Positions 24,376 through 46,311 of a DNA stretch of 64,000 bases are shown piece by piece. The DNA comes from an uncultured virus (IMG/VR IMGVR_UViG_3300027026_000009). Taxonomy: Duplodnaviria; Heunggongvirae; Uroviricota; Caudoviricetes. Below the pieces are notes generated by a model. That model searched no databases. It was not told the DNA's origin and worked only from the letters and a program-made list of their open reading frames with translations. Made by a program: the position numbers and the translations under genes. Each line of letters starts with the position of its first letter. Position 1 is the stretch's first letter. The stretch lies in IMG/VR virus record IMGVR_UViG_3300027026_000009; one strand, 5' to 3'.

Positions 24376-24664
24376 AATAGCGATAACGGTAGGTGTCGTT
24401 GGCGCAATTGGCGTTATCGACTACTATTATCCAGAGATAAAGAAATGGTGGGAAAAGCGTTCTATGGAACGTAAAAAAGCTATTGCGGGTAAAGTTTTGG
24501 ATGGCGAAATGGACTTTAAAGATATGCTTGATAACGGTGTCTCAATGATGATCCTAAACCAAGTCAAAAATGAGCGTGAACAAGCTGAAGCAAAAGCAAA
24601 GTTTGAATCTACGATAAAAAACGCTTTAGAAAATATTGATAGTTCCAGAACGGTCAAAGAATGA
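24359..24664 (+). CDS. Single-TM membrane protein
   Basis: N-terminal TM. Confidence 0.6.
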   Translation: MRPIAKIAITVGVVGAIGVIDYYYPEIKKWWEKRSMERKKAIAGKVLDGEMDFKDMLDNGVSMMILNQVKNEREQAEAKAKFESTIKNALENIDSSRTVKE

Positions 24665-24964
24665 CAAAAGTTCTGTGGCATAGATAAAATTACCGATAGT
24701 CCAATACCTACCTACGCCAGTTGTCTGTAAAAGTGCTACGACATCCTTTGTGCTTTTTGGATTACTGTTTGGAAAGTTGAAAGTGCCACTAGCGGTAGAA
24801 TATACCATGTTTGCGCCAGTGAACGGTTCGGCTGATAAATCCCATACTACCAAAACATTGCTTATTCTGGTGTTGTTGCCAGTAGCGGGCGACCCAAAAA
24901 TACTAACTGGTGCGTCAACGGTGCTATTGTTTATAAGCTTTAATGTAATTTCGTCCGAGTTCAT
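24626..24964 (-). CDS. Beta-rich virion protein candidate
   Basis: N-terminal ITLKLINNSTVDAPVSIFGS resembles the first strands of 40463..41161. Confidence 0.55.
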   Translation of the reverse strand: MNSDEITLKLINNSTVDAPVSIFGSPATGNNTRISNVLVVWDLSAEPFTGANMVYSTASGTFNFPNSNPKSTKDVVALLQTTGVGRYWTIGNFIYATELLSFFDRSGTINIF

Positions 24965-24965
24965 C

Positions 24966-25412
24966 CTATTTCTTTAATATCAAATATACGGCTGTTAAAG
25001 CCAAAGCACCAAATAGCCATTTATTGACTTGCGGTGAGGTCAAGTCCGTATCAAGTATCTTAGAAACCATATGTTCGCAGTTATTGTTAACTATATGGTA
25101 TTTTTTGTCCTTTAGGACATCCGCCATTTTACTGATGTCATCTTGGGTCAAGTCCGTGTTTTTTATTGATACGATTTCACGACCTTTTGCATACTTTTTA
25201 AAATCCTCGACAACTAGGTTGCCACCAAATACGTTCGATAAGCTTTGTTGGTTGTGGTAAAACAGAATTTCATCCCCGCTTCTTACGATAAAGCCATAAT
25301 GGTATATTATTGGCATTACGTCAGCCTTCAGCTTAACCAAATCACCAGTCTTTAGATTGGCTATGTGATTTTCTTTTACGGTAGATTTTAAAAGTTCTGT
25401 CTTTATGGTCAT
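24966..25412 (-). CDS. LRAT/HRASLS-like permuted papain-fold enzyme with C-terminal TM
   Basis: GDLV...YHYG...FYH...Y....NNCEH. Confidence 0.8.
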   Translation of the reverse strand: MTIKTELLKSTVKENHIANLKTGDLVKLKADVMPIIYHYGFIVRSGDEILFYHNQQSLSNVFGGNLVVEDFKKYAKGREIVSIKNTDLTQDDISKMADVLKDKKYHIVNNNCEHMVSKILDTDLTSPQVNKWLFGALALTAVYLILKK

Positions 25413-25414
25413 AA

Positions 25415-25900
25415 CTATTTTTTTGTAATATCAAGTTCGATTTTATCGTCATAGCCCTCGAAAAAACCATAGTCGTTCATAAAGTCGATCAAGTTCTGAT
25501 TAAGCTTGTCGTTCATAAAGTCGGCATTGTTTAATGTAAGAACGTTGAAAACCATATAAACACTACTGTTAGCCTTTACAAAGTAATCAATAGTTGTCCG
25601 TCCATTGAGTACATAATCATTACTGTCCATTTTTATATTCAGCGTTGACTGGTACTGTGTTGGGTCAACGGTCGGGATTACATCCTTGGCTTGTGCATTT
25701 CCGTTTACGTCAAATTTATAAAGTCGTAAGGTCTGTAAAATCTGGTCAACGTCATTGGCTTGTACGTATATTGACTTTACGGCATAGATATTTCCCGCCA
25801 TACTTTGCAGTATTTCTTCGTATGTCGTGCTGTCTTGCGAAACAATATCGACATACTTGTTATTTCCGAATAACTGATTTGTAGGTATATGCAGTGCCAT
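25415..25900 (-). CDS. Paralog of the putative major capsid protein (second/minor capsid protein)
   Basis: TYEEIL...YVQ...QILQTL....DVNGN.....IPTVDPTQYQST aligns with 40463..41161. Confidence 0.65.
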   Translation of the reverse strand: MALHIPTNQLFGNNKYVDIVSQDSTTYEEILQSMAGNIYAVKSIYVQANDVDQILQTLRLYKFDVNGNAQAKDVIPTVDPTQYQSTLNIKMDSNDYVLNGRTTIDYFVKANSSVYMVFNVLTLNNADFMNDKLNQNLIDFMNDYGFFEGYDDKIELDITKK

Positions 25901-26244
25901 TACTCATTCATTATTACTTTGTTCGTCTTTGGATCAACGGCTTGTAATTTTTTATCTTTCAATATGATTTTAACATTGTACTCTTTTAGCAATAGGTTCT
26001 GAAGCGCATTTGCGTCCTTTTGGGTTATATTGTCATCTAGACCTTTTCTCATGGCGTTAATTGCCGTTCTAGCGTTTGTCTTGGTCATTACGTCATTTTT
26101 ATCACCTTCCAACGGTTCTGAAGTTCTCATTGATTTTATGTCGTCAATAGTTCCAAAAATGCTAGAGTTCTTTGGTCTTAAAAAGAACAATAGGACTAAA
26201 CCTAATCCTAGAGTTATAAACAATGTTTTTTCTTGCTCGTCCAT
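25900..26244 (-). CDS. Single-TM membrane protein
   Basis: N-terminal TM. Confidence 0.7.
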   Translation of the reverse strand: MDEQEKTLFITLGLGLVLLFFLRPKNSSIFGTIDDIKSMRTSEPLEGDKNDVMTKTNARTAINAMRKGLDDNITQKDANALQNLLLKEYNVKIILKDKKLQAVDPKTNKVIMNE

Positions 26245-26245
26245 A

Positions 26246-26572
26246 TTATCTTTTTCTACTAATAAATATCAATACGCCAAAAACCACCACTGCCAAAGAT
26301 AGAACTACAACGGACTTTGACTTTTGTTTTGATGTCTCGACCTTTAATTGATTGTTTCTTTCAAGTGCCATTGCTTGAAACAATATACGCTGACGCTCTA
26401 TTTCGCTCTGTGCTTTTATCAATTGGCTTTCAAGCTTTCTAGCTTGTTCCAGTTCCAGTCTTGCGACAAATTGTTGCAATTGCTGTTGTTTCCTTGCATC
26501 GCTTTCACGGATCAAGGTCTGCCCTAGCATGGTAAGTCCTTGTGACGCTAAATTTGTAACATTAATTGCCAT
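26246..26572 (-). CDS. Coiled-coil protein with C-terminal TM
   Basis: TM plus basic tail. Confidence 0.7.
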   Translation of the reverse strand: MAINVTNLASQGLTMLGQTLIRESDARKQQQLQQFVARLELEQARKLESQLIKAQSEIERQRILFQAMALERNNQLKVETSKQKSKSVVVLSLAVVVFGVLIFISRKR

Positions 26573-26933
26573 TTCTCTCTAGTTTTTGGTTGATTTGATA
26601 CACTTGGTCACTGGTTCTGGTCTGAAGGTCTTTGTTGACGCTATCTATTTTATGTACGTGATTTCGGGTATCTCTTAAATCTTTTGTGTTCTGGTCTATT
26701 TTTTTTCCTTGCTCTACCATAAGCTTAACCAAGGTGTCCAACTGGTGTTGCTGTTTGTATTTTTCAACCTCGGTAGGTATATTCTGTGTTGCCTTTATGG
26801 TATCGACCTTTTGGTTTAAGTCATCAAATGTCAAGTTCCATTTGCTGAAAATTGCAAATAGACAAGCCACTAAAACGGAAGCACCGCTAATGTACCCTAT
26901 GATTTCGCCAAATGACCTTTTACCGTTGCTCAT
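26562..26933 (-). CDS. TM plus coiled-coil protein
   Basis: N-terminal TM. Confidence 0.7.
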   Translation of the reverse strand: MSNGKRSFGEIIGYISGASVLVACLFAIFSKWNLTFDDLNQKVDTIKATQNIPTEVEKYKQQHQLDTLVKLMVEQGKKIDQNTKDLRDTRNHVHKIDSVNKDLQTRTSDQVYQINQKLERNGN

Positions 26934-27463
26934 TACCCTTCTTTTATCAATACCGTACTACTGTAAATAATAGCTATTCCAAGCCCTATCGCTATCAAAT
27001 AGATATAAACGTTTTTTTGCCTTTCCGTGCTTTCGCCTTGTAGTGCCTTTCGATATTCCGTAAGACTGTTGGCTAAAATCCGTGTTCTTTCGGTTTCGCC
27101 CAACATTCGGATTTCTTCTTCCCCTAGCAAACGTTCCGTTTCAAGCTTTGCAAGCGTAATCCTCGCTTGAAGTTCCCTTTGCTTTTTTGCTTGCCTAGAA
27201 CCAATAATTGATGAAGCTAATGAAAGTGCGCCACCCACAACTGCGCCCGCAATATTATAGTCGGCATTGGCGTAAGCGGAATCAAAAGCTTCTATAAAAC
27301 TTTGGTCGCCACTTGCGATTGCATTTGCAGATTTATCTATAATTTCAGAAAGCGTTACCTTATCTGAAGTTCTGTAACCATTGTCATTCAAAATTTTGAC
27401 AACAACTTCTGGCTTATTGTAAATAAACCTAGAAAACCGCTCGATTTCTTGTGGTGCTTGCAT
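26933..27463 (-). CDS. Virion membrane protein (paralog family with 38786, 39392, 39986)
   Basis: Shared N-terminal V.K/R.IL...G helix, YANAD, C-terminal TM. Confidence 0.65.
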   Translation of the reverse strand: MQAPQEIERFSRFIYNKPEVVVKILNDNGYRTSDKVTLSEIIDKSANAIASGDQSFIEAFDSAYANADYNIAGAVVGGALSLASSIIGSRQAKKQRELQARITLAKLETERLLGEEEIRMLGETERTRILANSLTEYRKALQGESTERQKNVYIYLIAIGLGIAIIYSSTVLIKEG

Positions 27464-27481
27464 CCGAATAGTTTCTAAATG

Positions 27482-27555
27482 TAAAAATATTAAAAGCTTA
27501 AATGATATGTCTGTAAGACCAAGTTTTTAAGTGCAATAGTTTGTATTTGTTGCAC
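27482..27555 (-). promoter_or_regulatory. Late-class promoter with GTGCAA-N13-TTGCAC palindrome
   Basis: Palindrome 27531-27555; TATTTTTA 27489-27482 (offset 42). Confidence 0.65.
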
Positions 27556-27577
27556 TAACATTATCTTATTGTCTTTT

Positions 27578-28129
27578 TTATTCCGAAATTTTTCTTATTA
27601 GATAGTTGTACTCTGTCTTTATGAATCCTTTTGGGATATATTTATCATAAGGCGTAAACAAAAGTGAGCCTACCCTCATATTGCTTCCAACGTGACATAC
27701 GTATTCATAAAAACCGTCCTTGATAGGACGGTACATATAGATAAAATCAAAGCACCTATAAAAGCTATCTGGAAGGATTCTTATATCGGCACAATCGCAA
27801 TCGTATTCCGAAAGCAGTTCAAAAAATTTCGGTTCAAAATCTATTCCAGTGACTTGTGCGCCTAATTTTTTAGCAAACCTAAGGATCTGTCCAGTACCGC
27901 ACCCTAAGTCCAAGAATTTCATTTGCGGTTCGACATTGTTGTATATCGTTTTTAAATGGACGTAAGAACTAGGAAAATTGCCCCAAAAGGGCAAAAGTGA
28001 ATCTTTCTGAATAAAATTTTTAACTTCCAGATATTTAATGAAAAAACGGTAGTCATCGGTTAAAGACTTTAAGCTTGGCTTATAAACCTTATGGCAATGG
28101 CTCTGGTTCTCCGCCACCTTCACTTGCAT
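27578..28129 (-). CDS. Class I SAM-dependent methyltransferase
   Basis: FLDLGCGTG, VTGID, ADI, FDFIYMYRP; start uncertain. Confidence 0.85.
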   Translation of the reverse strand: MQVKVAENQSHCHKVYKPSLKSLTDDYRFFIKYLEVKNFIQKDSLLPFWGNFPSSYVHLKTIYNNVEPQMKFLDLGCGTGQILRFAKKLGAQVTGIDFEPKFFELLSEYDCDCADIRILPDSFYRCFDFIYMYRPIKDGFYEYVCHVGSNMRVGSLLFTPYDKYIPKGFIKTEYNYLIRKISE

Positions 28130-28613
28130 TCGGATTTTTGACTATCAACACTGGAAAAGGCACGTTAAATTGGTCAACTTGTGCGCCCAATTCACGGTCT
28201 ATACATCTAATGTTAAATACTGTGTCGCCACTCTTGTCTAAACCTACGGTAGCAACAATTATGTTAGTTGATCCGCTTGTTGCATTCGGGGCAAATAGAG
28301 CATAATCATTGGTTACGTCACCAGAACCGACAATCGTTCCCGAAATAACGCCAGTAGCTTTTGCCCAAGTAATATCAACGCCAAGCGTGTCTTTAAAAAC
28401 ACTAAATGTCAAAGCACCCACTTCTGGTATATCAGTAAATACGGCTATGTATTCGTCATTACCGCCACTTGGCAGATTTAATAGGTCTTGCAAAAGTATG
28501 GATTTACCTTCGCTGTCCTTTACTTTTAATGTGCCGTCTATATCAACGTACAACGCTAATTCATTGTCGCCTTTTTGGGGAACAAATCTTCCCTCTGTTC
28601 TTTTTAAAGCCAT
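28089..28613 (-). CDS. Spike/vertex-like structural protein
   Basis: N-terminus shared with the 29959-31660 trio; C-terminus similar to the 28640/29535 beta domain. Confidence 0.55.
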   Translation of the reverse strand: MALKRTEGRFVPQKGDNELALYVDIDGTLKVKDSEGKSILLQDLLNLPSGGNDEYIAVFTDIPEVGALTFSVFKDTLGVDITWAKATGVISGTIVGSGDVTNDYALFAPNATSGSTNIIVATVGLDKSGDTVFNIRCIDRELGAQVDQFNVPFPVLIVKNPNASEGGGEPEPLP

Positions 28614-28639
28614 GTCTTTATGTTTTATTAAATTTTATT

Positions 28640-29957: not shown

Positions 29958-29958
29958 G

Positions 29959-31100: not shown

Positions 31101-31111
31101 AACCAAATTAA

Positions 31112-31660
31112 TTATCTTCCACCACCACCACATTCTATTTCTACTACAAATCCGCTTTCATCGGTAGCTATAAATTGCGGGTCAGATTGTGTAACTCTAG
31201 CTGATTCTTGTGGTGCGCTCAATGGTAATGTACCGCTTGCATCCAAAAATATTTGATCGCCTACAACTGGTAATGCGTTTGCGCCAGTGTGATAGGCTAC
31301 AATAAAATCCATAGGCTCTGGTAATAGACCGCATCCGTCATAGCCCAAGTCACTGATGGCAAATTCGGTCAATTGCGTAATTGTAACCCATTGCTCGGCA
31401 TCTGTCGGTTGCTTCACCAGTTCTGCTTCGTTAAGTGTAGTAGCTATTGAACTCTTTCTTTCCGAACCGCTTGAAGCTGAATCCAGTTCAAAAACTCGTC
31501 CAATATTATCTTGGTCGCCTTGAAAAAAATCTTGCAACGGTACAACCTTTCCGTTAGTGTCCTTTAGCATTAAAAGACCAGTAGTGCCGTCTTGGTAGAT
31601 GGCAAGACCATTTCCTACTATGGTCTGGATGTCTTGTGTTTGCGATTTTTGTAAAGCCAT
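31112..31660 (-). CDS. Spike-like protein, paralog 1
   Basis: GNGLAIY...MLKDTNG...GDQDNI; YHTG...PVVGDQIF. Confidence 0.6.
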   Translation of the reverse strand: MALQKSQTQDIQTIVGNGLAIYQDGTTGLLMLKDTNGKVVPLQDFFQGDQDNIGRVFELDSASSGSERKSSIATTLNEAELVKQPTDAEQWVTITQLTEFAISDLGYDGCGLLPEPMDFIVAYHTGANALPVVGDQIFLDASGTLPLSAPQESARVTQSDPQFIATDESGFVVEIECGGGGR

Positions 31661-31674
31661 AACCTAAATAAAGG

Positions 31675-33979: not shown

Positions 33980-33980
33980 T

Positions 33981-35573: not shown

Positions 35574-35804
35574 TTATACTATTGCTAAACCAATGTTTTC
35601 ATTCTTGCAAGGGTCTGGGCATGGTGGCACTAGACAGTTCACTGCAATTTTATCACAATCTGGTTTTGGTACGACTTTACTTTCTTCAGCTACTTCTGGC
35701 TCGGCATTTAAGGTTTCCTTTTTTCTCATAGAAAGTTTATAGACACCAAAACCAACAAGTGCTATTCCGCCAAATAATAAAAAAGGGTTTTTTACGCTAA
35801 CCAT
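35574..35804 (-). CDS. Single-TM Cys-rich protein
   Basis: CDKIAVNCLVPPCPDPC. Confidence 0.6.
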   Translation of the reverse strand: MVSVKNPFLLFGGIALVGFGVYKLSMRKKETLNAEPEVAEESKVVPKPDCDKIAVNCLVPPCPDPCKNENIGLAIV

Positions 35805-36262
35805 CTTACATCTGGTTTTAGTGACATGATACGATATACCTCATTTAATTCTGCCGAATCAAGTTCGCTGTTCATTCTTGCATTGAAATCCTCATTGTAA
35901 CGTGCGCTGTAATATGAAGCTACTTGGCTCAATGCAACCTTATCGTTCAAAGAGTTCATAACGCCAAAAATGGCATCTTCATCAGTTCCAAGTCCACTAA
36001 AAGCATTTCTTAAAGCTTCTGCATTTTCTTGTACTGACTTATCTTTTAGCTTTACAAAAGGCTTATCTGTATTTATTGCAGTATGATAGCTTCCCTTTAA
36101 GGCTTGGCTTACTTGACGGTTATCACTGTTGACGGCTTGTGCCTTTATGGTCGTTACCAAAGAATCATAAGTCTGTTTGCGCTTAATTGTCCTATATCCA
36201 AGGTATAGACCAGTTACACCTACCAGTGATCCAGATATAATCAAAATTTGCTTTCTAGTCAT
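35792..36262 (-). CDS. Membrane-anchored annexin-repeat protein
   Basis: AEALRNAFSGLGTDEDAIFGVM...Y..RY...F...MNSEL matches the annexin GxGT...E repeat. Confidence 0.75.
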   Translation of the reverse strand: MTRKQILIISGSLVGVTGLYLGYRTIKRKQTYDSLVTTIKAQAVNSDNRQVSQALKGSYHTAINTDKPFVKLKDKSVQENAEALRNAFSGLGTDEDAIFGVMNSLNDKVALSQVASYYSARYNEDFNARMNSELDSAELNEVYRIMSLKPDVRWLA

Positions 36263-36970: not shown

Positions 36971-36978
36971 AACTACTT

Positions 36979-37767
36979 TTAATTTAAAATCATTTTTTTG
37001 TTTTCAAAGTCACGGATAAATTTGTTTAAAATATCATACCGTTGTTTGTTCTGTGGTGACGGTGTGCCTTTAAAAACTTCTAAAAACGCTTGATAGGCTT
37101 CAATCCTTGGATAACCAAGAGAAAGGTATATCAATAATGCGTTTAAATCTGCTTCAATTTCGCTACTCTTTACCCTATTACGATAAAAGTGTGCGTATTC
37201 ATGCAGTAAAATTGCCATGCGCATAGGCACGGTATATTTATCAAATCCTTCTTTGGAAATCTGTATATGTCCGTTATATGCAGAGATCCTAGCGGGTGTT
37301 GCAAGTTTTTGACCAGTTCTATTGCTAGTTATATATGGAAGGTAGTCTATTAGGAATTTACCGTTCTGGCTCTTGTAAACCTCGTTTGTTTTAAGATAAC
37401 TAGAGTTAAACGCAAATCTTTGTGCTAGATCAACAAAATTTCTAACATCTACATCCCTTATGTCGCTGACATCAGTGCGCTTGACCAGTGGAAGTTTTTT
37501 AAGCTTTAGAACCTTAAAAGATGGGTCTTGCCCTTTTGAAAGGTTGCCGTTCGCTTCGTTATAGACTTCTACTATCGTGTACTTCCGAGACAACGGCATT
37601 CTAATAATGAACCTTTGCATACCATTTACCGTCATGTACCTATCGGTATAGACTGCTTTAGTTCTTTCTTCATCGTAAGCCTTTATGCGAATCCTTTGAG
37701 GTGAAGCTGTTCGTACAACCACCTCAATAATCAATTCTTCATAATTAGTCTTAACTCGAAGGTTCAT
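36979..37767 (-). CDS. Zincin metallopeptidase (candidate maturation protease)
   Basis: AILLHEYAH...EIEAD; lies within the virion gene block. Confidence 0.75.
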   Translation of the reverse strand: MNLRVKTNYEELIIEVVVRTASPQRIRIKAYDEERTKAVYTDRYMTVNGMQRFIIRMPLSRKYTIVEVYNEANGNLSKGQDPSFKVLKLKKLPLVKRTDVSDIRDVDVRNFVDLAQRFAFNSSYLKTNEVYKSQNGKFLIDYLPYITSNRTGQKLATPARISAYNGHIQISKEGFDKYTVPMRMAILLHEYAHFYRNRVKSSEIEADLNALLIYLSLGYPRIEAYQAFLEVFKGTPSPQNKQRYDILNKFIRDFENKKMILN

Positions 37768-38036
37768 TAATTATAATACTTATAGACAAGTGCGCCGACA
37801 ACCAATGCTATTCCGCCACCTATAACCCATTTTGGTACGCCAGTGCTGAAAGCACCTTCGTTACTAGGGGCTTTTGCTGTACTTACGTTTTGTTCCTTGT
37901 ACGGCTTTATCAAATCTTCTAAAGCTTGGTTCTTGATAAATTCACCTTTAGCTTTTTCTCTTTCAATCCAGTCAGCAAAGGACAATGATGTATTAGCCAG
38001 TTTATAGCGTTGGTTTGCGGTCAGTGTCTCACTCAT
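37767..38036 (-). CDS. C-terminal TM protein
   Basis: Start 38036 (MSETLT). Confidence 0.65.
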   Translation of the reverse strand: MSETLTANQRYKLANTSLSFADWIEREKAKGEFIKNQALEDLIKPYKEQNVSTAKAPSNEGAFSTGVPKWVIGGGIALVVGALVYKYYN

Positions 38037-38127
38037 TTTTGTCTTTTTTAAAATAACGATTGATGACGTAAGATAAACCACCTACGCTAACGGTCAAAAC
38101 AATAATGGCAAAAACTTGTTTTTTCAT
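38029..38127 (-). CDS. 32-aa single-TM peptide (not in ORF track)
   Basis: MKKQVFAIIVLTVSVGGLSYVINRYFKKDKNE; overlaps both neighbours. Confidence 0.55.
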   Translation of the reverse strand: MKKQVFAIIVLTVSVGGLSYVINRYFKKDKNE

Positions 38128-38258
38128 TATACTAGATCTTTCCCGCCTTTTCCTCTGTCAAGTCCACGACCGACAGACCATGCAATACCGTAAACAACTG
38201 CAAGCGAAACTGCAAGTCCGATTGCGCCAGTTACTAATTTGTTAACATCTGTTTTCAT
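38127..38258 (-). CDS. 43-aa single-TM protein (not in ORF track)
   Basis: MKTDVNKLVTGAIGLAVSLAVVYGIAWSVGRGLDRGKGGKDLV. Confidence 0.65.
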   Translation of the reverse strand: MKTDVNKLVTGAIGLAVSLAVVYGIAWSVGRGLDRGKGGKDLV

Positions 38259-38282
38259 ATGTCTCTATTTTTATTGATTATA

Positions 38283-38555
38283 CTACTTTTTATTTAAGCC
38301 TTTGTAAACTAAATATCCCGCAATGACAGCAAGTACCGTACCTACCGTAAAAGCCCTTTCTACTGCGGGAATAAAGCCGTCAGCTTTCGGCTCTTTTGGT
38401 TTGGATTCTGATTTTTGGTCATCCTCGGTAACATTTGTTACCGTTGCCGTAAGTTCTGGTTTACCTTCTGCGTCTTTTATAACATCACGTGTCAATGGCT
38501 TCGCTAAGTTAGTTATATCCAGTCCTATCTGTTCGTTTGATGGTTCTTTAATCAT
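38283..38555 (-). CDS. C-terminal TM protein
   Basis: TM plus KK tail. Confidence 0.65.
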   Translation of the reverse strand: MIKEPSNEQIGLDITNLAKPLTRDVIKDAEGKPELTATVTNVTEDDQKSESKPKEPKADGFIPAVERAFTVGTVLAVIAGYLVYKGLNKK

Positions 38556-38556
38556 T

Positions 38557-38784
38557 TTATTTTGATTTTACTGTCAATACGTTACTTATGAATGCGCCAA
38601 CCAAAATGCCCGCAAGCGTGGTGACGTAAATTTTTCTTTGCTTCTGCATTCCGTAAAGAAACCCAAAAGCACCGCCCATCAAAGCACCATTTAACGTGCT
38701 TCTCGTCTTTAAGGCAATGATACTTTCTTTTTTATCTGTTTTTCCAGTTACCTCACTGACAATTTCTTTTGGTGTCCTAGTCAT
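38557..38784 (-). CDS. Gly-zipper two-TM protein
   Basis: GALMGGAFG and LAGILVGAF. Confidence 0.7.
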   Translation of the reverse strand: MTRTPKEIVSEVTGKTDKKESIIALKTRSTLNGALMGGAFGFLYGMQKQRKIYVTTLAGILVGAFISNVLTVKSK

Positions 38785-38785
38785 T

Positions 38786-39388
38786 TTACTTACGCATTGC
38801 TATTACTAGCCCGCCAATAACAAGTACCGCCACCAGACCTAAACCGCCATAAAGCAATGTCTTGTTTGGTGCGCTTGCGCCTTGTTGGGCTTTAAGTTGT
38901 TCTAATCTTAAACGTTCAAGTTCTAACTGCTGATTTCCTAATGCTAGTTGATTCTGTGCATTTTGGGTCGCAATCTGCGCTTGTTGTTCTGCAAGCTTTT
39001 GTTGGGCTTCGTTATTCTTAATGGTCGTAAATATGTTTGCGCCCGCACCTAAGATGTCGCCCGCATTGAAACCACTAAAGAACCCACCGCTTCCATCAGC
39101 CGAATAGCTTCCGCTAAACGAACCATCGGCATTGAGCATTCTGTTTTTGCCCGCTTTTAGCTTTTTAACCAGTCTTGTGTTTTCAGCCAAAACCGCTTGG
39201 AACATTTTGAAAAACATTTCATCGCCAGATACAAGTTTCTGGATCAATGCTCGGTGTATTTCTCTGTTTGGCGTAAGATTGCTGACGTTCACACCGCTTC
39301 TATTTAAAATGCGTACCGCACCTTTTTTGTCAACGGCTGTAACGAACCCTACTGAACGACCTAATTGGTCAACTCTTTGCTTGCTCAT
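38786..39388 (-). CDS. Virion membrane protein with NADG/SADG motifs
   Basis: MLNADG, YSADG, Gln-rich helix, C-terminal TM. Confidence 0.7.
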   Translation of the reverse strand: MSKQRVDQLGRSVGFVTAVDKKGAVRILNRSGVNVSNLTPNREIHRALIQKLVSGDEMFFKMFQAVLAENTRLVKKLKAGKNRMLNADGSFSGSYSADGSGGFFSGFNAGDILGAGANIFTTIKNNEAQQKLAEQQAQIATQNAQNQLALGNQQLELERLRLEQLKAQQGASAPNKTLLYGGLGLVAVLVIGGLVIAMRK

Positions 39389-39391
39389 TTT

Positions 39392-39976
39392 TTACTTCTT
39401 TTTGGCAAAATAAACTATCGTTCCAATCGCCAATAAACCCACTACTGCCATTGAAGCATATAGCACGGTATTGTTGGATTGGGATTGTGGTTGTAGTTTG
39501 ATTTTGTCACGTTCAACGTCAACGGCTGAAGTTATCGCATCCCTTTCGTTCTTCGATACTTCAATATCTCGTTGTATTTCTAATACACCTACTGTGGTGT
39601 TTATAAGGTCTGCTAGTGTCAATCCATCAAAAAAACCACCTTTTCCACTGTCTGAAGAAGTGGGTGAAGAAGTTGTGGTTTGCTGTGGAATATTTACTGG
39701 ATTTATACCTACTGGCTGAAGGACATTCACCGTAGAAACTGGTTCTCGCCCAGACGCATTAAAGTTTTCCCTCTTTGCTTGTATGTACTTACCAAATTCA
39801 ATTCCTAGTCTCTTTGACTTTGCAAGGGCTTCGATAAAAACCTTTGTAAGTTGGTTTTTGCCTATTACTAAAGCTGTATCTACACCATTGCGTTTCAATA
39901 GCTGTCTTACGCCATTTTCATCTTTTTGGATTGCGTGGGCAATAACCTTAACTGCGGATTTTTTGTTTTTACTCAT
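39392..39976 (-). CDS. Virion membrane protein with NASG motif
   Basis: Paralog of 38786 (shared GGFF.G....D.I segment). Confidence 0.7.
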   Translation of the reverse strand: MSKNKKSAVKVIAHAIQKDENGVRQLLKRNGVDTALVIGKNQLTKVFIEALAKSKRLGIEFGKYIQAKRENFNASGREPVSTVNVLQPVGINPVNIPQQTTTSSPTSSDSGKGGFFDGLTLADLINTTVGVLEIQRDIEVSKNERDAITSAVDVERDKIKLQPQSQSNNTVLYASMAVVGLLAIGTIVYFAKKK

Positions 39977-39985
39977 AGCCTTTAT

Positions 39986-40375
39986 TTATTTTTTTAGGAT
40001 TGCCAATGAAATCATCATTGCGCCCGCTAGGAAAATTAAACTAAAATTATCTTGTGTCTTTTTTGCTTCGCTCTCTTGACTTCTTGTTATGCCAAAACCA
40101 CCGTCAGCATTATAAAAAGGTTGGTTAGCTTTTAGAAATTGGTCTATGTCAGAAGTGCCGTCCGCACTTAATTCTGGTGCGCACATTTCCAGTATCAATT
40201 CTTTGTCTGGGTGATTATCGACTATTGCCTTTAAAGCGGGTTCGCCTTCAGAAGCCACTAACTTACGTAAGCTAAGTGACCAATTATTGTTGGTAGCTTG
40301 ATAGCCGAACTCGTTTAAAATCCTTTTAGCGACCGTTGGGTTTGAACCCACATAGTCATATATAGTTACTGACAT
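39986..40375 (-). CDS. Virion membrane protein with SADG/NADG motifs
   Basis: LSADG, FYNADG, C-terminal TM. Confidence 0.7.
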   Translation of the reverse strand: MSVTIYDYVGSNPTVAKRILNEFGYQATNNNWSLSLRKLVASEGEPALKAIVDNHPDKELILEMCAPELSADGTSDIDQFLKANQPFYNADGGFGITRSQESEAKKTQDNFSLIFLAGAMMISLAILKK

Positions 40376-40389
40376 AATTCTTTTTTAAG

Positions 40390-40424
40390 AAAAAAAGGGC
40401 GGATGGAAAACATCTGCCCTTCTT
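40390..40424 (-). terminator. Terminator after the putative capsid gene
   Basis: AAGGGCAGATG/CATCCGCCCTT stem plus U-tract on the minus strand. Confidence 0.85.
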
Positions 40425-40462
40425 TAAGATTTAACTTTTCCATCGTCATTAATGGATGCCGA

Positions 40463-41161
40463 TTACTTCAATTTGATAGTCTGCGACTTAACAATTTGAG
40501 GGTTGGCAAATCCTCTATTAACGTTCTTACCGCTTAAACCACGTGCAAGGTTAATGTTGTCAGATGGATATAAGTAAAGTTTCACAGTTGCGTTCGCAAG
40601 GATCTGACGGATAATGATTTTTGTAAAACCATCTATACGGTACGCATATCGCATTGCAACGATCGTAGATTGTTGCTGATATGGGTCGATAGTTGGTACA
40701 AAAGTCTTTTGCGCCAAGTTACCGTTTGCGTCTCTTGTGTTCACTGAAAGTGTTTCAAGGACTTGGTTTGCGGTTGCAGACTGGATGTACGTTAATCCTA
40801 CACTGAAAGGCGTAGTTGCGAACTGGTTCAACATTTCACGATATGTAATTCCAGATACACCAGAACTAATCGTTACTGAACCGTCCACATAGTCACCGTT
40901 CGCTTGGAAGTTTGCACTTTGAGCGTATTGGTACGAACCAAGAACTTCAAAGTTAGACACAGCAGAACCCGAAGTGGATGTTACTGTGATTATATAAGGT
41001 TGTGACGTTGGTGCTGAACCACCGCCCATAGGCTGACCACTAGCACCAAAGAAATCATCCCCAGTGAAAGACAAGTCATCGTCGATAAAGCCATCAGCAC
41101 CTAGAAAGCTTTCGTTAGCTTCTCTTTGCGCATTAGCTAAATATTTGGCTACATTACTCAT
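40463..41161 (-). CDS. Putative single jelly-roll major capsid protein
   Basis: Beta-rich, no TM, near the packaging ATPase, own promoter and terminator, has a paralog; fold is inferred. Confidence 0.6.
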   Translation of the reverse strand: MSNVAKYLANAQREANESFLGADGFIDDDLSFTGDDFFGASGQPMGGGSAPTSQPYIITVTSTSGSAVSNFEVLGSYQYAQSANFQANGDYVDGSVTISSGVSGITYREMLNQFATTPFSVGLTYIQSATANQVLETLSVNTRDANGNLAQKTFVPTIDPYQQQSTIVAMRYAYRIDGFTKIIIRQILANATVKLYLYPSDNINLARGLSGKNVNRGFANPQIVKSQTIKLK

Positions 41162-41180
41162 AGCAATTTGAATTTAAAAA

Positions 41181-41318
41181 TTATACGTTTTCTTTTACTG
41201 CCTTTGGTACACTTGTCCTAGCTTTGTTGAACTGGTCATTTGCAACCGTAAAGATTGTCGAACCTACAACTACTGCCAAAACTGATGTCCAAAAGGACTT
41301 GTCGGTGAAAATGTTCAT
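41181..41318 (-). CDS. 45-aa membrane protein upstream of the capsid gene
   Basis: MNIFTDKSFWTSVLAVVVGSTIFTVAN. Confidence 0.7.
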   Translation of the reverse strand: MNIFTDKSFWTSVLAVVVGSTIFTVANDQFNKARTSVPKAVKENV

Positions 41319-41369
41319 CACAGAATGATTTTTTCGGTAACACCGATTACAGAATCGATAATTACAATT

Positions 41370-41443
41370 CAAATATATTGTATGTGCAAGCTTATTTGTG
41401 GGAAAATAGAATGTTTATGTGCAATAATCGTGGATAATTGCAC
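41370..41443 (-). promoter_or_regulatory. Late-class capsid-operon promoter
   Basis: GTGCAA-N13-TTGCAC 41419-41443; TATATTTG 41377-41370 (offset 42). Confidence 0.75.
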
Positions 41444-42268
41444 TTAAACTATAAAATCTCGTAAAATTCTTTCCCGTACGGCTTGGTAAGCTGTTTCTGC
41501 CGTGTATTTTTTTTCACCAGTCTTGGTAATTTGCTGAAGCATTGGATTGATAATAGTGCGATAGTTTCGGCTTATGTATTCTTCGATAGCCACTTCTACA
41601 TCCTCTTTGGTGAATGCACCACGCAATTTTTCGTTGTCAATATCTACCCATAAGAAAAACCTTCTGTCGCCATTGGAGTATTTTTTATTGACGATCAATT
41701 CCGCAATCTTTAGGTATTCGTATTTGTCCTCGAATTTATGGCGGTGCTTATCAACGCTATCGGTGTTCTTGTGAAAGCGTATCATATTTAGGTTTTGCCA
41801 GATTTTTGAGGTCACACGTCCAATAGACTGAAAGTGCATTATAATATCTAGGTCGTTGTGACGGTTCGTACATATTGCACCAATTACGTCATTTGGAAGC
41901 ATATCAGAAATATACTTATTAATGTCCTCAATCAATAAAAGACCGCCACTATAATTTTGTAAGATATGGAAAAGGCATTCTTGAATGTCACGCATGGTCA
42001 TTTTGCGACCAGTATCTTCACGGAACGGTCTTATCCTTCGGGCTTCGATTTTTGGGTGGGCTGAAAATTTAAGTACGTCTCTAAGGCTTAAAGCCTTGAC
42101 ATGAGTAAACTCGTCATTTACGTCAAGTATCAAAACCTTTCGACCTTTTACGCCCTTTGAAGGGTTGCCTATCATGTAATCTCGGAACTGTTCGTTTGTT
42201 TCCCAAGTTTTACCTACACCCTTTTTTCCTACTGCGACTACAAGTAATGGTTCTCTAAATTCTGACAT
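41444..42268 (-). CDS. FtsK/HerA-superfamily genome packaging ATPase (A32/P9-like)
   Basis: Walker A GKKGVGKT, Walker B LLLIED, Arg finger NRH, IIMHFQ motif, compact 274 aa. Confidence 0.8.
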   Translation of the reverse strand: MSEFREPLLVVAVGKKGVGKTWETNEQFRDYMIGNPSKGVKGRKVLILDVNDEFTHVKALSLRDVLKFSAHPKIEARRIRPFREDTGRKMTMRDIQECLFHILQNYSGGLLLIEDINKYISDMLPNDVIGAICTNRHNDLDIIMHFQSIGRVTSKIWQNLNMIRFHKNTDSVDKHRHKFEDKYEYLKIAELIVNKKYSNGDRRFFLWVDIDNEKLRGAFTKEDVEVAIEEYISRNYRTIINPMLQQITKTGEKKYTAETAYQAVRERILRDFIV

Positions 42269-42269
42269 A

Positions 42270-43310
42270 CTAACTGTTTTTTGCTACATCGTCCATATGT
42301 TTTAAAGCTTTTTCATCACCAAGTTTAGGCATATTGTCTGGAACTTCGGCATCCTCAAAAGTAGAATCTGTTTCAATTTCTATTTCTTCAAATGATGTTG
42401 TTTCTGGCGCACTTGATTCTTCATATTCAGAAAATTCATCTACCACTGGCTCATTTGGTGTTGGCTGAATGTCTGGCGAACCGTCACCATCTGGTGATGG
42501 TTTTGGCGGTGGTGTTGATTGATCGCTAGAACTGCTTTTAGGCTGACCGCCCGACCTCATGTATTCAGTCTGCGCCCTCATTTCGCTTAAAATCATATTA
42601 CTATTTCTTTTAAGGGCAAAAGCGGTTGCACCTTTTTGTACCAAGTCCGTACCAAAATAATAAGCCAACAATTGTTCATCGGTCATTCCGACACCTCGTT
42701 TTTTGAATACACGAACCAATGGCGGTTTTACTTTATCGATAAATTCCTTATCAGTCTCAAAGGCTTCTTTAGTTTCTTTATTGTACTCATTGACCCAAGT
42801 ACGTATGTTTGCCGAATTACCGTTCTGGTCTATCGGCATTTGAATATCTGGATTTATGTTACCGTCAGCGATTTCCCTTTCAAGTGCTGTTTCATTTATT
42901 TCGCAAACCTTACCTAGAAGGTTTCCTAGCTTTGAGTAACCGTCCAAAGCAACATCCGCCATCATTTCAGCACCTACTGTTTTGTCCTTGTCGCTTAAAT
43001 CGTGAAATTCTTGATTGAACTTAGGTGATTCATCGTCTTGTTTTTGGTACGACTTTTCTTGACTGTTTGACTGATTACTATTGCTAGGGCTTCCGCCAGT
43101 AGGGTCGTTTTCCATAGAAAAACTGTCAAGGTCTGGCATTTTAAAAGTAGGTTCGGCTATTTCGGCTTCCAAAGTGCTAGGGTCAATATTTGGTTTAGTG
43201 TATTCCCTATCTTTGGGTTGTGCATCAAAAGGCGACCAGTTCTCTTGCTCTATTTGCTCAAAATCAACCGTTGCTTCCTTGTCTTTGCTATTTTTATTTT
43301 TCTTTGCCAT
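42270..43310 (-). CDS. Acidic low-complexity protein adjacent to the ATPase
   Basis: ORF; shares a motif with 8007..9347. Confidence 0.7.
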   Translation of the reverse strand: MAKKNKNSKDKEATVDFEQIEQENWSPFDAQPKDREYTKPNIDPSTLEAEIAEPTFKMPDLDSFSMENDPTGGSPSNSNQSNSQEKSYQKQDDESPKFNQEFHDLSDKDKTVGAEMMADVALDGYSKLGNLLGKVCEINETALEREIADGNINPDIQMPIDQNGNSANIRTWVNEYNKETKEAFETDKEFIDKVKPPLVRVFKKRGVGMTDEQLLAYYFGTDLVQKGATAFALKRNSNMILSEMRAQTEYMRSGGQPKSSSSDQSTPPPKPSPDGDGSPDIQPTPNEPVVDEFSEYEESSAPETTSFEEIEIETDSTFEDAEVPDNMPKLGDEKALKHMDDVAKNS

Positions 43311-43890
43311 TGTAGTTTAGTATAAAGTCAATTAGTAATTCCTTAGCTTTTAAGTGTTTCTTAAAAATGCTGTTTTCCCTTGGGTGCTTAAAATCCAATT
43401 TTAGTATCTTATTCTTATGTCTGGATATTGCCCAAGTATTCTTTTTTGTCAATTTATTAATATCTGCGACCGAAAAGTTTAAATAGGTAATCATTAAATG
43501 GATTACAGAACCACTCGCATAAATACGCTTGCCGTCACGGTTCTTGTCATCTAAAATTACTTGTCTGGGAAGGTCATAAAGACGTTCGACAATTTGAAAT
43601 ATCTTTTCGGTAACAATTTCAGATTTATCTATCCAGTTGAAGTCATTGTATAAATAATTGGTATCACACTGCAATAAATAAACCGCTTGGTCAATATTTT
43701 TATGGTCTATAAACTTCACGCATTTATCAAAAGCTTCTTTTACCGTTCCCTCAATTCCGCATCTGTGATCCAAATGTTCGGTAAGCCCTTTTTCAGACAA
43801 GTTGTAATAACTTAACATGAAAGAAACGGTATCAATGCCAAATTGCTTAATGTTTTCATTCAATACATTAAATAGTTTCTCATTGCTCAT
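43294..43890 (-). CDS. Protein with DnaA C-terminal-like HTH
   Basis: IFQIVERLY.L....IL...R...R.YA......L......S..DI...TKKN..AI. Confidence 0.5.
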   Translation of the reverse strand: MSNEKLFNVLNENIKQFGIDTVSFMLSYYNLSEKGLTEHLDHRCGIEGTVKEAFDKCVKFIDHKNIDQAVYLLQCDTNYLYNDFNWIDKSEIVTEKIFQIVERLYDLPRQVILDDKNRDGKRIYASGSVIHLMITYLNFSVADINKLTKKNTWAISRHKNKILKLDFKHPRENSIFKKHLKAKELLIDFILNYNGKEK

Positions 43891-44540
43891 TAGATATTGT
43901 ATTTTTTGAGAAACTCTTTGTTCGATATAATCCTATCAGCGACCTTTTCTGCAAATGCAATGTCGGATTGGTAATTATTGCCAAGATATAGACGGCTATT
44001 CTTTATAGCTTCCTTTATTTGCATAAACTTTTCGTAATCGTCTGGAATTAAATTACCTAAAACCTCACAGAATACACACCCTAGTACCACAGTTCTACTT
44101 GGATATGATGGTGTGTCGTTTCTGTAATTGCTTATTGGGAATAACTTAACTTTTGTGTTGGAAGCAAACTGGTTTGGGCGTATTCGCTTAAAATAATATT
44201 TAAGCTTTACGATGATCGGGTCGATGTCATCTGCTAATTGCTGTATCTTTCCCATAACATCCACTCGTGGTGATTTTGCCGTGTTGTAGAACCACTGCTC
44301 AAAGTTACGGTCAATCTTACTGTACATTAACAAAGCTTCTTCATTCTCGCTAAGTTGTATGTCGGTCAGCCTAACTATGGTGTCATTTACTTCTTGTATG
44401 GCTTTTTCGCCAGAAGGATAATTATAATCATCTTTAGCGAAATCAATAAAAACACTATCTAGGTAGTTGTTCTTCTGTATTAATTTCTGTTCGGCATAAG
44501 ATGGGTTTCCAAATTTTAGTGTGTCAATATTTAATTTCAT
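43890..44540 (-). CDS. Degenerate PAP2/haloperoxidase-fold phosphatase
   Basis: K.YFKRIRP, PSYPSRT, SRLYLGNNYQSD. Confidence 0.75.
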   Translation of the reverse strand: MKLNIDTLKFGNPSYAEQKLIQKNNYLDSVFIDFAKDDYNYPSGEKAIQEVNDTIVRLTDIQLSENEEALLMYSKIDRNFEQWFYNTAKSPRVDVMGKIQQLADDIDPIIVKLKYYFKRIRPNQFASNTKVKLFPISNYRNDTPSYPSRTVVLGCVFCEVLGNLIPDDYEKFMQIKEAIKNSRLYLGNNYQSDIAFAEKVADRIISNKEFLKKYNI

Positions 44541-44543
44541 TTT

Positions 44544-44786
44544 TTATTTGTACAAAGCATTCAACAAAGCACGATTTGTCCGAATGTTGTAAATCATACC
44601 TACAAAAATTAAAATACCAAGACCATAATTTACAATAGTAAAGTCATTGGGTAAATTAATCTTTCCGCCATCTGCCATAGTTTGTGATGGGTTGGGCGTA
44701 GGTGTAGGCTCTGGTATAGGCGTACCTTCTGGGGCAACTGGTGGAGTTGCGGGTGCGGGTGGTGTTGGGTTTATATTAGGATTCAT
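44544..44786 (-). CDS. Pro-rich single-TM protein with MADGG motif
   Basis: TM; MADGGKI. Confidence 0.65.
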   Translation of the reverse strand: MNPNINPTPPAPATPPVAPEGTPIPEPTPTPNPSQTMADGGKINLPNDFTIVNYGLGILIFVGMIYNIRTNRALLNALYK

Positions 44787-45171
44787 AATGTTTCCATAAA
44801 ACTAAGCCAATGAGACTGATTGCCAGTCCACCGCTTATGATTAATACTTTTTTATTAAATTCTTTGTTGTCATTTATAACTGGCTGTTTTTTTGGTGCTG
44901 TAATTACCACTTCATCCAGTTGCTCAAATGATTCTTCCAAAACAATTTCAGTGTCTTGCACATCGGAAGCTTTTAAGAATTTAGGTTTAAATCCTAAATA
45001 TGATATTTTTATGGTTGTGTCTGGGTCAATCTCATTAGATTCTAGGGCAAAAGTTCCGTCATTTAGTACAACTGTTCCAATACCAAAGCTTTTCCCATTT
45101 CGTAAAGGAATCACATTCGCCATTTCTAGCGGTGTATTCATAATATCGGTGACAGTTCCACTTATTCTCAT
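44776..45171 (-). CDS. CarboxypepD_reg-like (SusC N-terminal extension) domain with C-terminal TM
   Basis: ISGTVTD...PLE.ANV...GT....DG.F.L...ISYLGFK...QLDEVVITA. Confidence 0.85.
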   Translation of the reverse strand: MRISGTVTDIMNTPLEMANVIPLRNGKSFGIGTVVLNDGTFALESNEIDPDTTIKISYLGFKPKFLKASDVQDTEIVLEESFEQLDEVVITAPKKQPVINDNKEFNKKVLIISGGLAISLIGLVLWKHYES

Positions 45172-45329
45172 TTCATCAATCTTAATTGCTTGTAAGCTAA
45201 AATTCCTTGTAGCAAACTAGCCATTGCCAAAGCCACGAAAAAGGCTATTTCTGCATTTTTCTTTGCACGTTCCTTGTAATCCGTGGTTTGTTTTTTTTCT
45301 TCTACCGCTTTTTCAATATCATTAATCAT
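45168..45329 (-). CDS. 53-aa single-TM protein (not in ORF track)
   Basis: MINDIEKAVEEKKQ...IAFFVALAMASLLQGILAY. Confidence 0.6.
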   Translation of the reverse strand: MINDIEKAVEEKKQTTDYKERAKKNAEIAFFVALAMASLLQGILAYKQLRLMK

Positions 45330-45330
45330 C

Positions 45331-45885
45331 TTAATTCTTTTTATACATTATAGCACCAAAGGTTACAACCGTAAGACCAACAGCTATAATTGCGCCCAAT
45401 AAACCCTTGCTTGATTTTGCGCTTTCTGAAGGTGGTTGGTTTTGCGTTCTGGGCTGTGGTTCGTTGCCCTCTTGCTTGCCTTCTTGACCGCCCTCTTGCT
45501 TGCCTTCTTGACCGCCCTCTTGACCGTTGTTTTGGGCTTGGGCTTGTGATTGCGCTTGGGCTTCCGCTTGTTTTCTTTTCCTTTCTTCTTCCTTTTCAGC
45601 TTCCTTTTGCTGACGCTTTTGTAAGTCCTTATATTCAAGGTCTAACAATTCGTTGAAGCTTACGGCTTCTTGATAAAGGTCAGCTTCAAGTTCTTGAAGA
45701 TTTTCTTGATTCAATTCAATTTCTTCTTCATCCATGTCCTCAAAACTCTCCTTTAGGTCGGCTATTCGGTTCTGAAGTCCTTTTATCTTATTGTATTCAC
45801 GCACAGCATGACTACTTAGGTTTTCCCTTTTTATCTTACCGATTAAAGTAAGCATTTCGTTTAGTGTCGAGTTTAATTTCTTCAT
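45331..45885 (-). CDS. Coiled-coil protein with QEGG/QEGK repeats and C-terminal TM
   Basis: ORF; repeats at about 45466-45524. Confidence 0.7.
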   Translation of the reverse strand: MKKLNSTLNEMLTLIGKIKRENLSSHAVREYNKIKGLQNRIADLKESFEDMDEEEIELNQENLQELEADLYQEAVSFNELLDLEYKDLQKRQQKEAEKEEERKRKQAEAQAQSQAQAQNNGQEGGQEGKQEGGQEGKQEGNEPQPRTQNQPPSESAKSSKGLLGAIIAVGLTVVTFGAIMYKKN

Positions 45886-45942
45886 TAGATATTACTTTTT
45901 AACAAATATATAAATTTTTGGCTTCAATGCCGAGTTATTCTC

Positions 45943-46311
45943 TTACGTGTTTAAATGTGACCAGTCCAGAGGTCGTGGCGCATTAAATCCAGTCCAATCA
46001 ACATTGGACAGATTTTGTCCAATCTGTTTTGTCGGGTCAAACTTGAATTTATCAAGGTCTGCTTTTATTTTATCCAAGTCCGCATCGCTAAAATCTACTG
46101 GTATGCCACCAGACTGCATGATTTTAAGGTCATTATATAAACGTTCTTGCTTCAGTAAACGTGCTTGACGTTCTTCTGGCGTTTCAGTCTCTTGGTATTC
46201 CAAAAGCGTCACGTCAACTTTTGAAGGTGCGCTTTTAGTTAGCTGTCTTATAAGAAATACACCACCAACCAAAAAACCGACACCAAGGGCTAATTTAGTT
46301 CCTTGTCTCAT
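45943..46311 (-). CDS. Single-TM membrane protein
   Basis: N-terminal TM. Confidence 0.65.
   Translation of the reverse strand: MRQGTKLALGVGFLVGGVFLIRQLTKSAPSKVDVTLLEYQETETPEERQARLLKQERLYNDLKIMQSGGIPVDFSDADLDKIKADLDKFKFDPTKQIGQNLSNVDWTGFNAPRPLDWSHLNT

Follow-up and report, generated by a model that had tools for sequence, protein, structure and literature searches.

The 64,000-nucleotide stretch of DNA analyzed here (IMG/VR record IMGVR_UViG_3300027026_000009; hereafter the window) probably represents the greater part of the genome of a marine, still uncultured bacterial virus that belongs to a large and widespread lineage with linear double-stranded DNA (dsDNA) genomes of ~70 to 130 kb. The virus would be tailless, of the internal-membrane type and probably a virus of Bacteroidota, a reading to which we assign a probability of about 0.65. 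It centers on a minus-strand operon (positions 24626 to 46311) that would be the late, particle-building operon and that encodes a compact FtsK/HerA-type ATPase, a 232-aa protein with a predicted jelly-roll-type beta-sandwich, a 161-aa paralog of that protein and many small membrane proteins. An earlier interpretation made from the letters alone (the sequence-only reading) had proposed a >64-kb tailless virus with an internal membrane, and the analysis supported it: structure prediction gave the 232-aa protein a jelly-roll-type beta-sandwich, and no set of HK97 capsid, terminase and tail genes was detected in the window or in a complete relative, nor was one terminase family, the HK97 capsid family or one portal family detected in any of five related records. 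The capsid role of the 232-aa protein, the membrane and the shape of the particle are what we infer from this gene content.

The window (36% G+C) carries 105 open reading frames (ORFs) on two converging arms, with ~50 ORFs on the plus strand from 1 to 24.6 kb and ~55 on the minus strand from 64 kb down to 24.6 kb. No tRNA genes were found in the window, and Pfam and PHROGs left the majority of the 105 ORFs without explanation. IMG/VR yielded 48 related loci, on contigs mostly of 70 to 79 kb with three of ~100 kb. One relative, G001 (72,545 bp, CheckV 100%), ends in exact 123-bp inverted terminal repeats (ITRs), and a more distant one, G010 (coat candidate 52% identical), is classed as ITR by IMG/VR. 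The 132,486-bp contig G006:C9, binned into a Sediminibacterium metagenome-assembled genome (MAG), has the same module, a G+C content uniformly of 30 to 36%, and homologs of window genes from 21.8 to 112.8 kb, with a 100-N scaffold gap at ~92.6 kb. It was considered as evidence for a prophage or for a host and was rejected as such, since it resembles a virus along its whole length and a scan of 107 of its 223 ORFs found neither host genes nor an integrase nor a tailed-phage hallmark. It is probably a mis-binned virus genome of ~130 kb, and relatives of the window virus may thus reach that size.

The ATPase is a compact member of the FtsK-HerA superfamily whose nearest solved relative, judged from its predicted model, packages the genome of a virus with a membrane and no tail. 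The sequence-only reading had recognized it by Walker A and B, NRH and FQ motifs. All were read again (Walker A GKKGVGKT, Walker B LLLIEDIN, TNRH and HFQSIGR), and their positions were invariant across 36 aligned homologs (54 to 67% identical to the window protein), with no variation at residues G14, K16, G17, G19, K20, E114 and D115. The AlphaFold model (predicted local distance difference test [pLDDT] 90.1; predicted template modeling score [pTM] 0.85) includes a helical C-terminal extension of 55 residues. Foldseek ranks 1 to 15 were all chains of the genome-packaging NTPase B204 of Sulfolobus turreted icosahedral virus (STIV) and STIV2 (best E = 3.1e-9, target template modeling [TM] score 0.68), followed by the Zot N-terminal domain (8.8e-7), HerA (1.3e-5) and FtsK (7.2e-5). 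In the modeled fold the lead of B204 over cellular HerA-type enzymes is real, if modest. At the sequence level, single-sequence and profile comparisons with the PDB gave nothing significant, no Pfam family matched the window protein, certain homologs carry PF01935, and a weak match to the PHROG “terminase large subunit” (E = 1.9e-4) covered profile positions 324 to 484 of 555. The cluster to which the ATPase itself belongs was found on contigs of up to 74,836 bp.

The 232-aa protein, the candidate major capsid protein (MCP), had been described from the sequence as beta-rich and devoid of transmembrane segments, and both statements held. A hydropathy scan found no hydrophobic segment, and the predicted structure (105 aligned members; pLDDT 87.8) consists of a helix at residues 3 to 17, a disordered arm at ~20 to 50 and a compact beta-sandwich at 52 to 217 with pLDDT of >95. 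In Foldseek this model had no match to the PDB at E ≤ 0.001. Its best sub-threshold rows were the small coat protein of cowpea mosaic virus (CPMV), enterovirus VP3, the coat protein of satellite tobacco mosaic virus (STMV), TNF/C1q heads and carbohydrate-binding modules, and the top 1000 rows showed the same mixed picture. The fold matches listed with Z scores included PR772 chain O (6.0), grapevine fanleaf virus (5.8), phiCjT23 (5.7), Paramecium bursaria chlorella virus 1 (PBCV-1; 5.7), the MCP of the Flavobacterium-infecting, lipid-containing phage (FLiP; 5.6), Emiliania huxleyi virus (EhV; 5.5), faustovirus (5.4), PM2 (5.3) and adenovirus hexon (5.0). Toxins, carbohydrate-binding modules and TNF-like domains were interspersed with these capsid rows at an equal level, so the fold matches are generic only. 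The capsid proteins of P23-77, SH1 and Haloarcula hispanica icosahedral virus 2 (HHIV-2) were not among the matches listed, which is no evidence of differing folds. The sequence of the coat candidate matched nothing in Pfam, PHROGs, NCBIfam or the PDB and therefore has no detectable homology to a known MCP family, and the ESM Atlas returned nothing usable for it. Against 50,697 cultured-phage records, neither tblastn of the coat candidate and the ATPase nor megablast of window positions 38000 to 46400 found a match.

A capsid role for this protein is suggested by its gene context, namely its place near the ATPase, the strong terminator behind it, its presence in all 48 related loci and its conservation, which is the highest in the block (~75% identity across relatives versus 55 to 68% for the ATPase). 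The order of genes is the ATPase, one small membrane ORF and then the coat candidate downstream. An exhaustive HMMER search placed the coat family in 582 clusters at 50% identity; at 90% identity there were 2042 clusters, most of them ~75% identical to the window protein. The sequence-only reading had credited the 232-aa gene with a promoter and a terminator of its own. The terminator stood, as a hairpin followed by U7 that folds with a dG of −23.3 kcal/mol (z = −3.0; a stability reached by 2 of 200 shuffles), although a scanner for sigma-70 and terminator consensus sequences gave nothing useful near the coat gene and missed this hairpin. The promoter came down to a Bacteroidota-type TAnnTTTG box at 41370 to 41377 (minus strand), a consensus match upstream of the small membrane ORF that precedes the coat gene. 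The real start of that ORF is likely the ATG at 41318, which would give a product of 45 aa. As a separate observation, the motif [FY]x[NG][AVIM]xG occurs three times in two module proteins, as FLGADG and FFGASG in the arm of the coat candidate and as FYNADG before the anchor of the adjoining 129-aa protein (39986 to 40375), versus ~1 occurrence expected and within the range of shuffles (maximum 5).

That the 232-aa protein has a paralog, as the sequence-only reading held, was established by BLASTP between it and the 161-aa protein (E = 1e-13) and by a profile of the coat family, built from 103 sequences with the window's own two left out, which found the 161-aa protein at E = 7.5e-16 (profile positions 84 to 192 of 226). 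No other of the 105 window ORFs scored below E = 0.04. Orthologs of the paralog stand at the matching distal end of the late operon in G001 and G006:C9, and in all three genomes the two paralogs lie ~15 kb apart.

Membrane segments were predicted with a Kyte-Doolittle scan (19-residue window, cutoff of 1.6). They occurred in 23 of the 43 ORFs of the operon, compared with 11 of 50 on the plus-strand arm and 1 of 12 beyond position 46308. The earlier count of about 30 small membrane proteins roughly fits the window as a whole (35 of 105 ORFs) and is too high for the operon to which it had been applied. Fourteen of the 43 operon ORFs are single-pass proteins anchored at the extreme C terminus, a tail-anchored topology that forms a striking bias among otherwise unrelated small proteins. 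A 156-aa protein at 35792 to 36262 (minus strand) matches the annexin repeat PF00191 (E = 7.2e-6, 26.4 bits versus a cutoff of 25). Annexin repeats bind phospholipids, which makes them worth noting in a putative membrane-containing virion.

The conserved core of the module (Table 1) was defined by tblastn of all window proteins against the 48 IMG/VR loci, which extend ~10 kb to either side of the coat gene unless cut by contig ends, as many of them are. Beyond the coat candidate and the ATPase it includes a 346-aa acidic protein that matched no family in Pfam, PHROGs or NCBIfam, and a PAP2-superfamily protein whose match is weak in the window (E = 0.0011, 19.2 bits, below the cutoff) and above the cutoff in the G001 ortholog (47.5 bits). 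The 262-aa protein keeps its HExxH motif in 41 of 41 orthologs and had no Pfam, NCBIfam or PDB match by sequence or profile. On these sequence features it is a candidate for a new zinc protease family tied to the virion module. The N-terminal domain of the 131-aa protein was identified by PF13715 (E = 2.5e-9) and by the N terminus of TIGR04056 (E = 1.5e-13).

Table 1. Positions of the features discussed, in window coordinates, with the number of the 48 related loci in which core genes were found
Feature	Positions	Strand	Basis	Loci (of 48)
Late operon, 43 ORFs	24626..46311	-	23 ORFs with a predicted membrane segment, 14 of those C-terminal anchors	
148-aa PPPDE/LRAT (NlpC/P60-like) papain-fold enzyme beside the paralog	24966..25412	-	PF05903 E = 2e-7, above cutoff; orthologs in G001 and G006:C9	
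161-aa coat-candidate paralog; candidate for a penton (vertex) subunit or a second capsid protein	25415..25900	-	BLASTP, family profile	
262-aa protein with HExxH (HEYAH, residues 189-193); candidate zinc protease for virion maturation	36979..37767	-	Conservation across loci	40
104-aa C-terminally anchored membrane protein	37767..38081	-	Conservation across loci	37
129-aa C-terminally anchored membrane protein adjoining the coat candidate	39986..40375	-	Conservation across loci	43
Intrinsic-terminator-like hairpin and U7, directly 3' of the coat gene	40390..40425	-	Folding	
232-aa candidate major capsid protein (coat candidate)	40463..41161	-	N-terminal helix and disordered arm (1-50), jelly-roll-type beta-sandwich (~52-217) in the model	48
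Small single-pass membrane ORF directly upstream of the coat candidate	41181..41372	-	Sequence, hydropathy, motif position	
274-aa FtsK/HerA-superfamily ATPase; candidate genome-packaging motor	41444..42268	-	Motifs, fold model	46
346-aa acidic, low-complexity protein directly upstream of the ATPase; candidate for a scaffold or an accessory to packaging	42270..43310	-	Conservation across loci	45
216-aa PAP2-superfamily (lipid/acid phosphatase-like) protein	43890..44540	-	Conservation across loci	43
131-aa protein with SusC/RagA-type CarboxypepD_reg-like N-terminal domain and C-terminal membrane anchor	44776..45171	-	Conservation across loci	28
Upstream block on the operon's strand: 2049-aa and 1206-aa polyvalent-type giants, 443-aa MoxR-type AAA ATPase, 504-aa DUF7192 protein	46308..61737	-		

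Together these genes suggest how the particle might be built. The 232-aa single jelly-roll protein would form an icosahedral shell, in which the 161-aa paralog would fill the vertices or act as a second shell subunit, and the roughly two dozen small single-pass proteins would sit in an internal, host-derived lipid membrane to which the PAP2-like enzyme may contribute. The B204/A32-like ATPase would pump the linear genome through a vertex into the preformed, membrane-lined shell, the HExxH protein may trim flexible arms of virion proteins, and the finished particle would lack a tail.

Pfam and PHROGs detected none of the terminase, portal, HK97 capsid, tail tube, sheath, tape-measure and baseplate families in the 105 window ORFs, in agreement with the sequence-only reading, which had noted no terminase, portal or tail genes in the 64 kb. 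Three exceptions exist by name, namely a Phage_lysozyme2 domain at 19260 to 19760, the weak PHROG terminase match of the ATPase described above and a weak “internal virion protein” match of the ORF at 38786 to 39388 (E = 7.5e-5). In G001, Pfam scans of all 112 ORFs were negative for terminase, portal, HK97 capsid, tail and DNA polymerase families, and PHROGs found no tailed-phage hallmark in 28 of its larger ORFs. A six-frame search of five related records with PF03237 (Terminase_6N), PF05065 (Phage_capsid) and PF04860 (Phage_portal) gave 0 of 5 for each, with each of the three models ringing in 4 to 5 of 14 control genomes.

These results bear most directly on the strongest rival, a tailed phage (Caudoviricetes) whose hallmark genes have diverged past detection by hidden Markov models (HMMs), in which the ATPase would handle DNA in some other capacity and the 232-aa protein would serve as a decoration protein, a fiber head or a receptor-binding protein. 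ORFs of portal, terminase or capsid size stand without assignment both in the window (472, 504 and 358 aa) and in G001 (569, 524, 400 and 365 aa). Among the fold matches of the coat candidate, TNF/C1q heads and phage tail proteins reach the Z scores of capsid proteins, the Phage_lysozyme2 domain is often part of tape-measure proteins, the ATPase has its terminase-like PHROG match, and the ESM Atlas clusters of the DUF7192 protein bear automatic Uroviricota labels. Nonetheless, a large terminase is as a rule detected more readily than any other phage gene, and no hallmark family emerged from the window, from G001 or, for the families searched there, from the further records, in searches whose controls rang. 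The best fold match of the ATPase is a packaging NTPase that serves a tailless membrane virus, half of the module consists of membrane proteins, and relatives carry ITRs, all of which make a tailed phage unlikely. Less likely still is a virus rich in membrane proteins but of a different shape (pleomorphic, enveloped or vesicle-like), in which the ATPase would power assembly or extrusion at the cell membrane, like Zot of filamentous phages, and the jelly-roll protein would be a surface spike in place of a closed shell. A nonviral origin, as a large linear plasmid or mobile element with a HerA/VirB4-type translocase and membrane proteins of a transfer or secretion apparatus, is highly improbable, since Pfam scans of the window, G001 and G006:C9 found no relaxase, coupling-protein or type IV secretion family, lysis and entry would account for the several peptidoglycan hydrolases and binding domains, dozens of contigs classed as viral in IMG/VR agree in genome size and gene order, and a single small beta-sandwich protein shows extreme conservation and high representation.

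Several points weigh against the tailless, internal-membrane reading that we prefer. The absence of tailed-phage genes comes from HMM searches, with structure models that did not cover ~10 mid-sized ORFs, and ~10 kb of the contig lies beyond the window and outside the searches. The membrane proteins were counted with a hydropathy scan that is crude. The TAnnTTTG box is not enriched in the window (103 found versus 96.7 expected). The coat candidate and its paralog are not adjacent, as the two jelly-roll genes are in sphaerolipovirus-type genomes, and neither SSIP-1, a cultured phage discussed below, nor any of the 50,697 cultured-phage records shows sequence similarity. The five related loci that come from MAGs are labeled with five different phyla, so binning names no host. 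Finally, no protein-primed polymerase was found despite the ITRs: PF03175 gave 0 of 5 related records, with a control that rang in only 1 of 14 genomes and under the cutoff. Nor did Pfam find a DNA polymerase family of any other kind in the ITR-ended G001.

A B204/A32-like ATPase, an adjoining jelly-roll coat gene and many small membrane proteins together are the signature of PRD1-type and sphaerolipovirus-type virions. The window virus is read, on this gene content, as working like those viruses and is not filed as a member of any of their families. B204 of STIV and STIV2 (Turriviridae), the solved A32/P9-like member of the FtsK-HerA group, is only 14 to 17% identical to the window ATPase, which differs from it in having the 55-residue helical C-terminal extension; the hosts also differ, being archaeal for STIV and bacterial here, and the STIV genome is about four times smaller than that of the window virus. 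The MCP of PRD1 is a double jelly roll, and its ~15-kb genome encodes a protein-primed polymerase. Compared with PRD1 and PR772 (Tectiviridae), the ITRs of the relatives recall PRD1, whereas the coat candidate is predicted to be single-barrel and the PF03175 polymerase family gave no match in the five related records. P23-77, IN93, SH1 and HHIV-2 (Helvetiavirae/Singelaviria) have two vertical single jelly-roll capsid proteins, and the window virus likewise encodes a small protein with a predicted single, not double, jelly-roll-type fold and a second, paralogous one. As in sphaerolipovirus-type genomes, an FtsK/HerA-type ATPase is encoded beside the coat gene along with many small membrane proteins. 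In contrast to them, the window lineage has no adjacent ATPase-MCP-MCP cassette, its only paralog being ~15 kb away, and its genomes are 2 to 4 times larger and linear, with ITRs in relatives.

To our knowledge, cultured tailless membrane phages all have small genomes, the largest being that of SSIP-1 at 43.8 kb. SSIP-1 is described as a tailless, membrane-containing type with two MCP types, and two single-barrel MCPs are described in P23-77, IN93 and SSIP-1 (PMC6356626). The SSIP-1 genome on record is a circle of 43,788 bp, in contrast to the linear 70 to 130 kb of the window lineage, and its giant structural protein gp43 (6,960-bp gene) is comparable in size to the 2049-aa ORF of the window. 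None of the 57 SSIP-1 proteins matched the coat and ATPase profiles or any of the 105 window proteins (BLASTP, E ≤ 0.01). FLiP and phiCjT23 (Finnlakeviridae) are described as membrane-containing Flavobacterium phages with small single-stranded DNA genomes and double jelly-roll MCPs (PMC6356626, PMC9719478), and the window virus has no sequence similarity to them.

A search of the full-text published literature outside subscription journals found no account of a 70- to 130-kb tailless or jelly-roll phage lineage. It is tempting, if speculative, to go further and regard the window virus as part of an undescribed, high-rank lineage of bacterial viruses, tailless, icosahedral and membrane-lined, with one small single jelly-roll coat protein to which no relative was detected among known capsid proteins and linear ITR-ended genomes of 70 to 130 kb whose ends are copied without a recognizable protein-primed polymerase. 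Such a lineage might be abundant in marine and fresh waters and might represent either a missing large-genome bacterial branch of Singelaviria or an independent invention of the design that combines ATPase, jelly roll and membrane. We regard this wider proposal as possible rather than probable. Tailless phages with membranes are regarded as killers of aquatic bacteria that have been undersampled. If the reading is correct, the genomes would be two to three times the size of that of the largest cultured phage of such architecture, and particles of the tailless membrane design may be able to hold genomes as large as those of large tailed phages commonly are, leaving space for polyvalent anti-defense proteins, glycosyltransferases and other accessory genes. 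The lineage, which has hundreds of divergent coat-protein clusters in public metagenomes, would mark a blind spot of marker-based virus classification. The lineage would also raise the question of how ITR-ended genomes are replicated without a recognized protein-primed polymerase, and could contribute a new capsid protein family.

Peptidoglycan-binding and lytic domains, HNH/NUMOD4 homing endonucleases, RecT, ArdA and toxin-antitoxin-type domains in the window and its relatives point to a bacterial host. A Shine-Dalgarno core lies within 20 nt upstream of 2 of 104 window genes, versus a background of 4.5%, and at −14 to −11 the gene leaders are rich in A and poor in G. The near absence of Shine-Dalgarno sequences is characteristic of Bacteroidota. 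Because of this scarcity, the SusC/RagA-type N-terminal domain and the one TAnnTTTG box, the sequence hints at Bacteroidota, and the host is probably a member of that phylum. Among the sequencing-run matches listed, window DNA occurred in four DNA data sets, two of them marine metagenomes from which it may derive and two with only a small share of it, and in no RNA set.

Recognizable genes of the plus-strand arm include glycosyltransferases, a hexapeptide transferase, helix-turn-helix regulators, an endonuclease VII-like protein and a lytic and wall-directed set (lysozyme, a peptidoglycan-binding protein and a CHAP/DUF2272 protein). Those of the minus-strand arm include, besides the PAP2-like and PPPDE/LRAT enzymes and the annexin-repeat match, a methyltransferase, LEA_2 and a membrane-anchored peptidoglycan-binding protein. 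G001 encodes RecT and a nuclease of the PDDEXK type, endonucleases of the NUMOD4-HNH type (three), glycosyltransferases, a sulfotransferase, an adenylylsulfate (APS) kinase, PAP2, lytic enzymes of the M15, GH108 and SLT types, an ArdA domain inside a 921-aa protein and a MoxR/DUF7192 pair. Its large proteins of 1018, 870 and 676 aa, the last with UspA1 adhesin repeats, are likely spikes. The first ~43 residues of a 182-aa window protein (31112 to 31660, minus strand) match the N terminus of the 1018-aa G001 protein (47380 to 50436) at 44% identity, and this common N terminus suggests a conserved virion anchor on exchangeable spike or receptor-binding bodies.

The block upstream of the operon matched the Pfam families RelA_SpoT, Zeta_toxin, AAA_5 and DUF7192, with orthologs in G001 and G006:C9. 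The first two matches fall in the 2049-aa ORF (46308 to 52457, minus strand), with the RelA_SpoT domain at residues 743 to 846 and the Zeta_toxin/AAA_33 domain at 1571 to 1741. The 1206-aa ORF (58117 to 61737, minus strand) had neither a Pfam match nor Pol motifs, and its counterparts in G001 and G006:C9 carry DUF5661. These giant polyvalent-type proteins may be anti-defense proteins delivered by the virion. The 443-aa MoxR-type AAA ATPase, which has a CobS-like PHROG match, adjoins the 504-aa DUF7192 protein (53871 to 56716, minus strand), for which the ESM Atlas returned DUF7192 clusters only; the pair is kept in G001 and G006:C9. A cluster of GT2/GT4 glycosyltransferases and a hexapeptide acyltransferase lies at 13309 to 18169 (plus strand) of the window, at 6685 to 10891 of G001 and at 102 to 113 kb of G006:C9. 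It is common to the relatives but located on differing genome arms, has an extra sulfotransferase and APS kinase in G001, and suggests virus-directed glycan modification.

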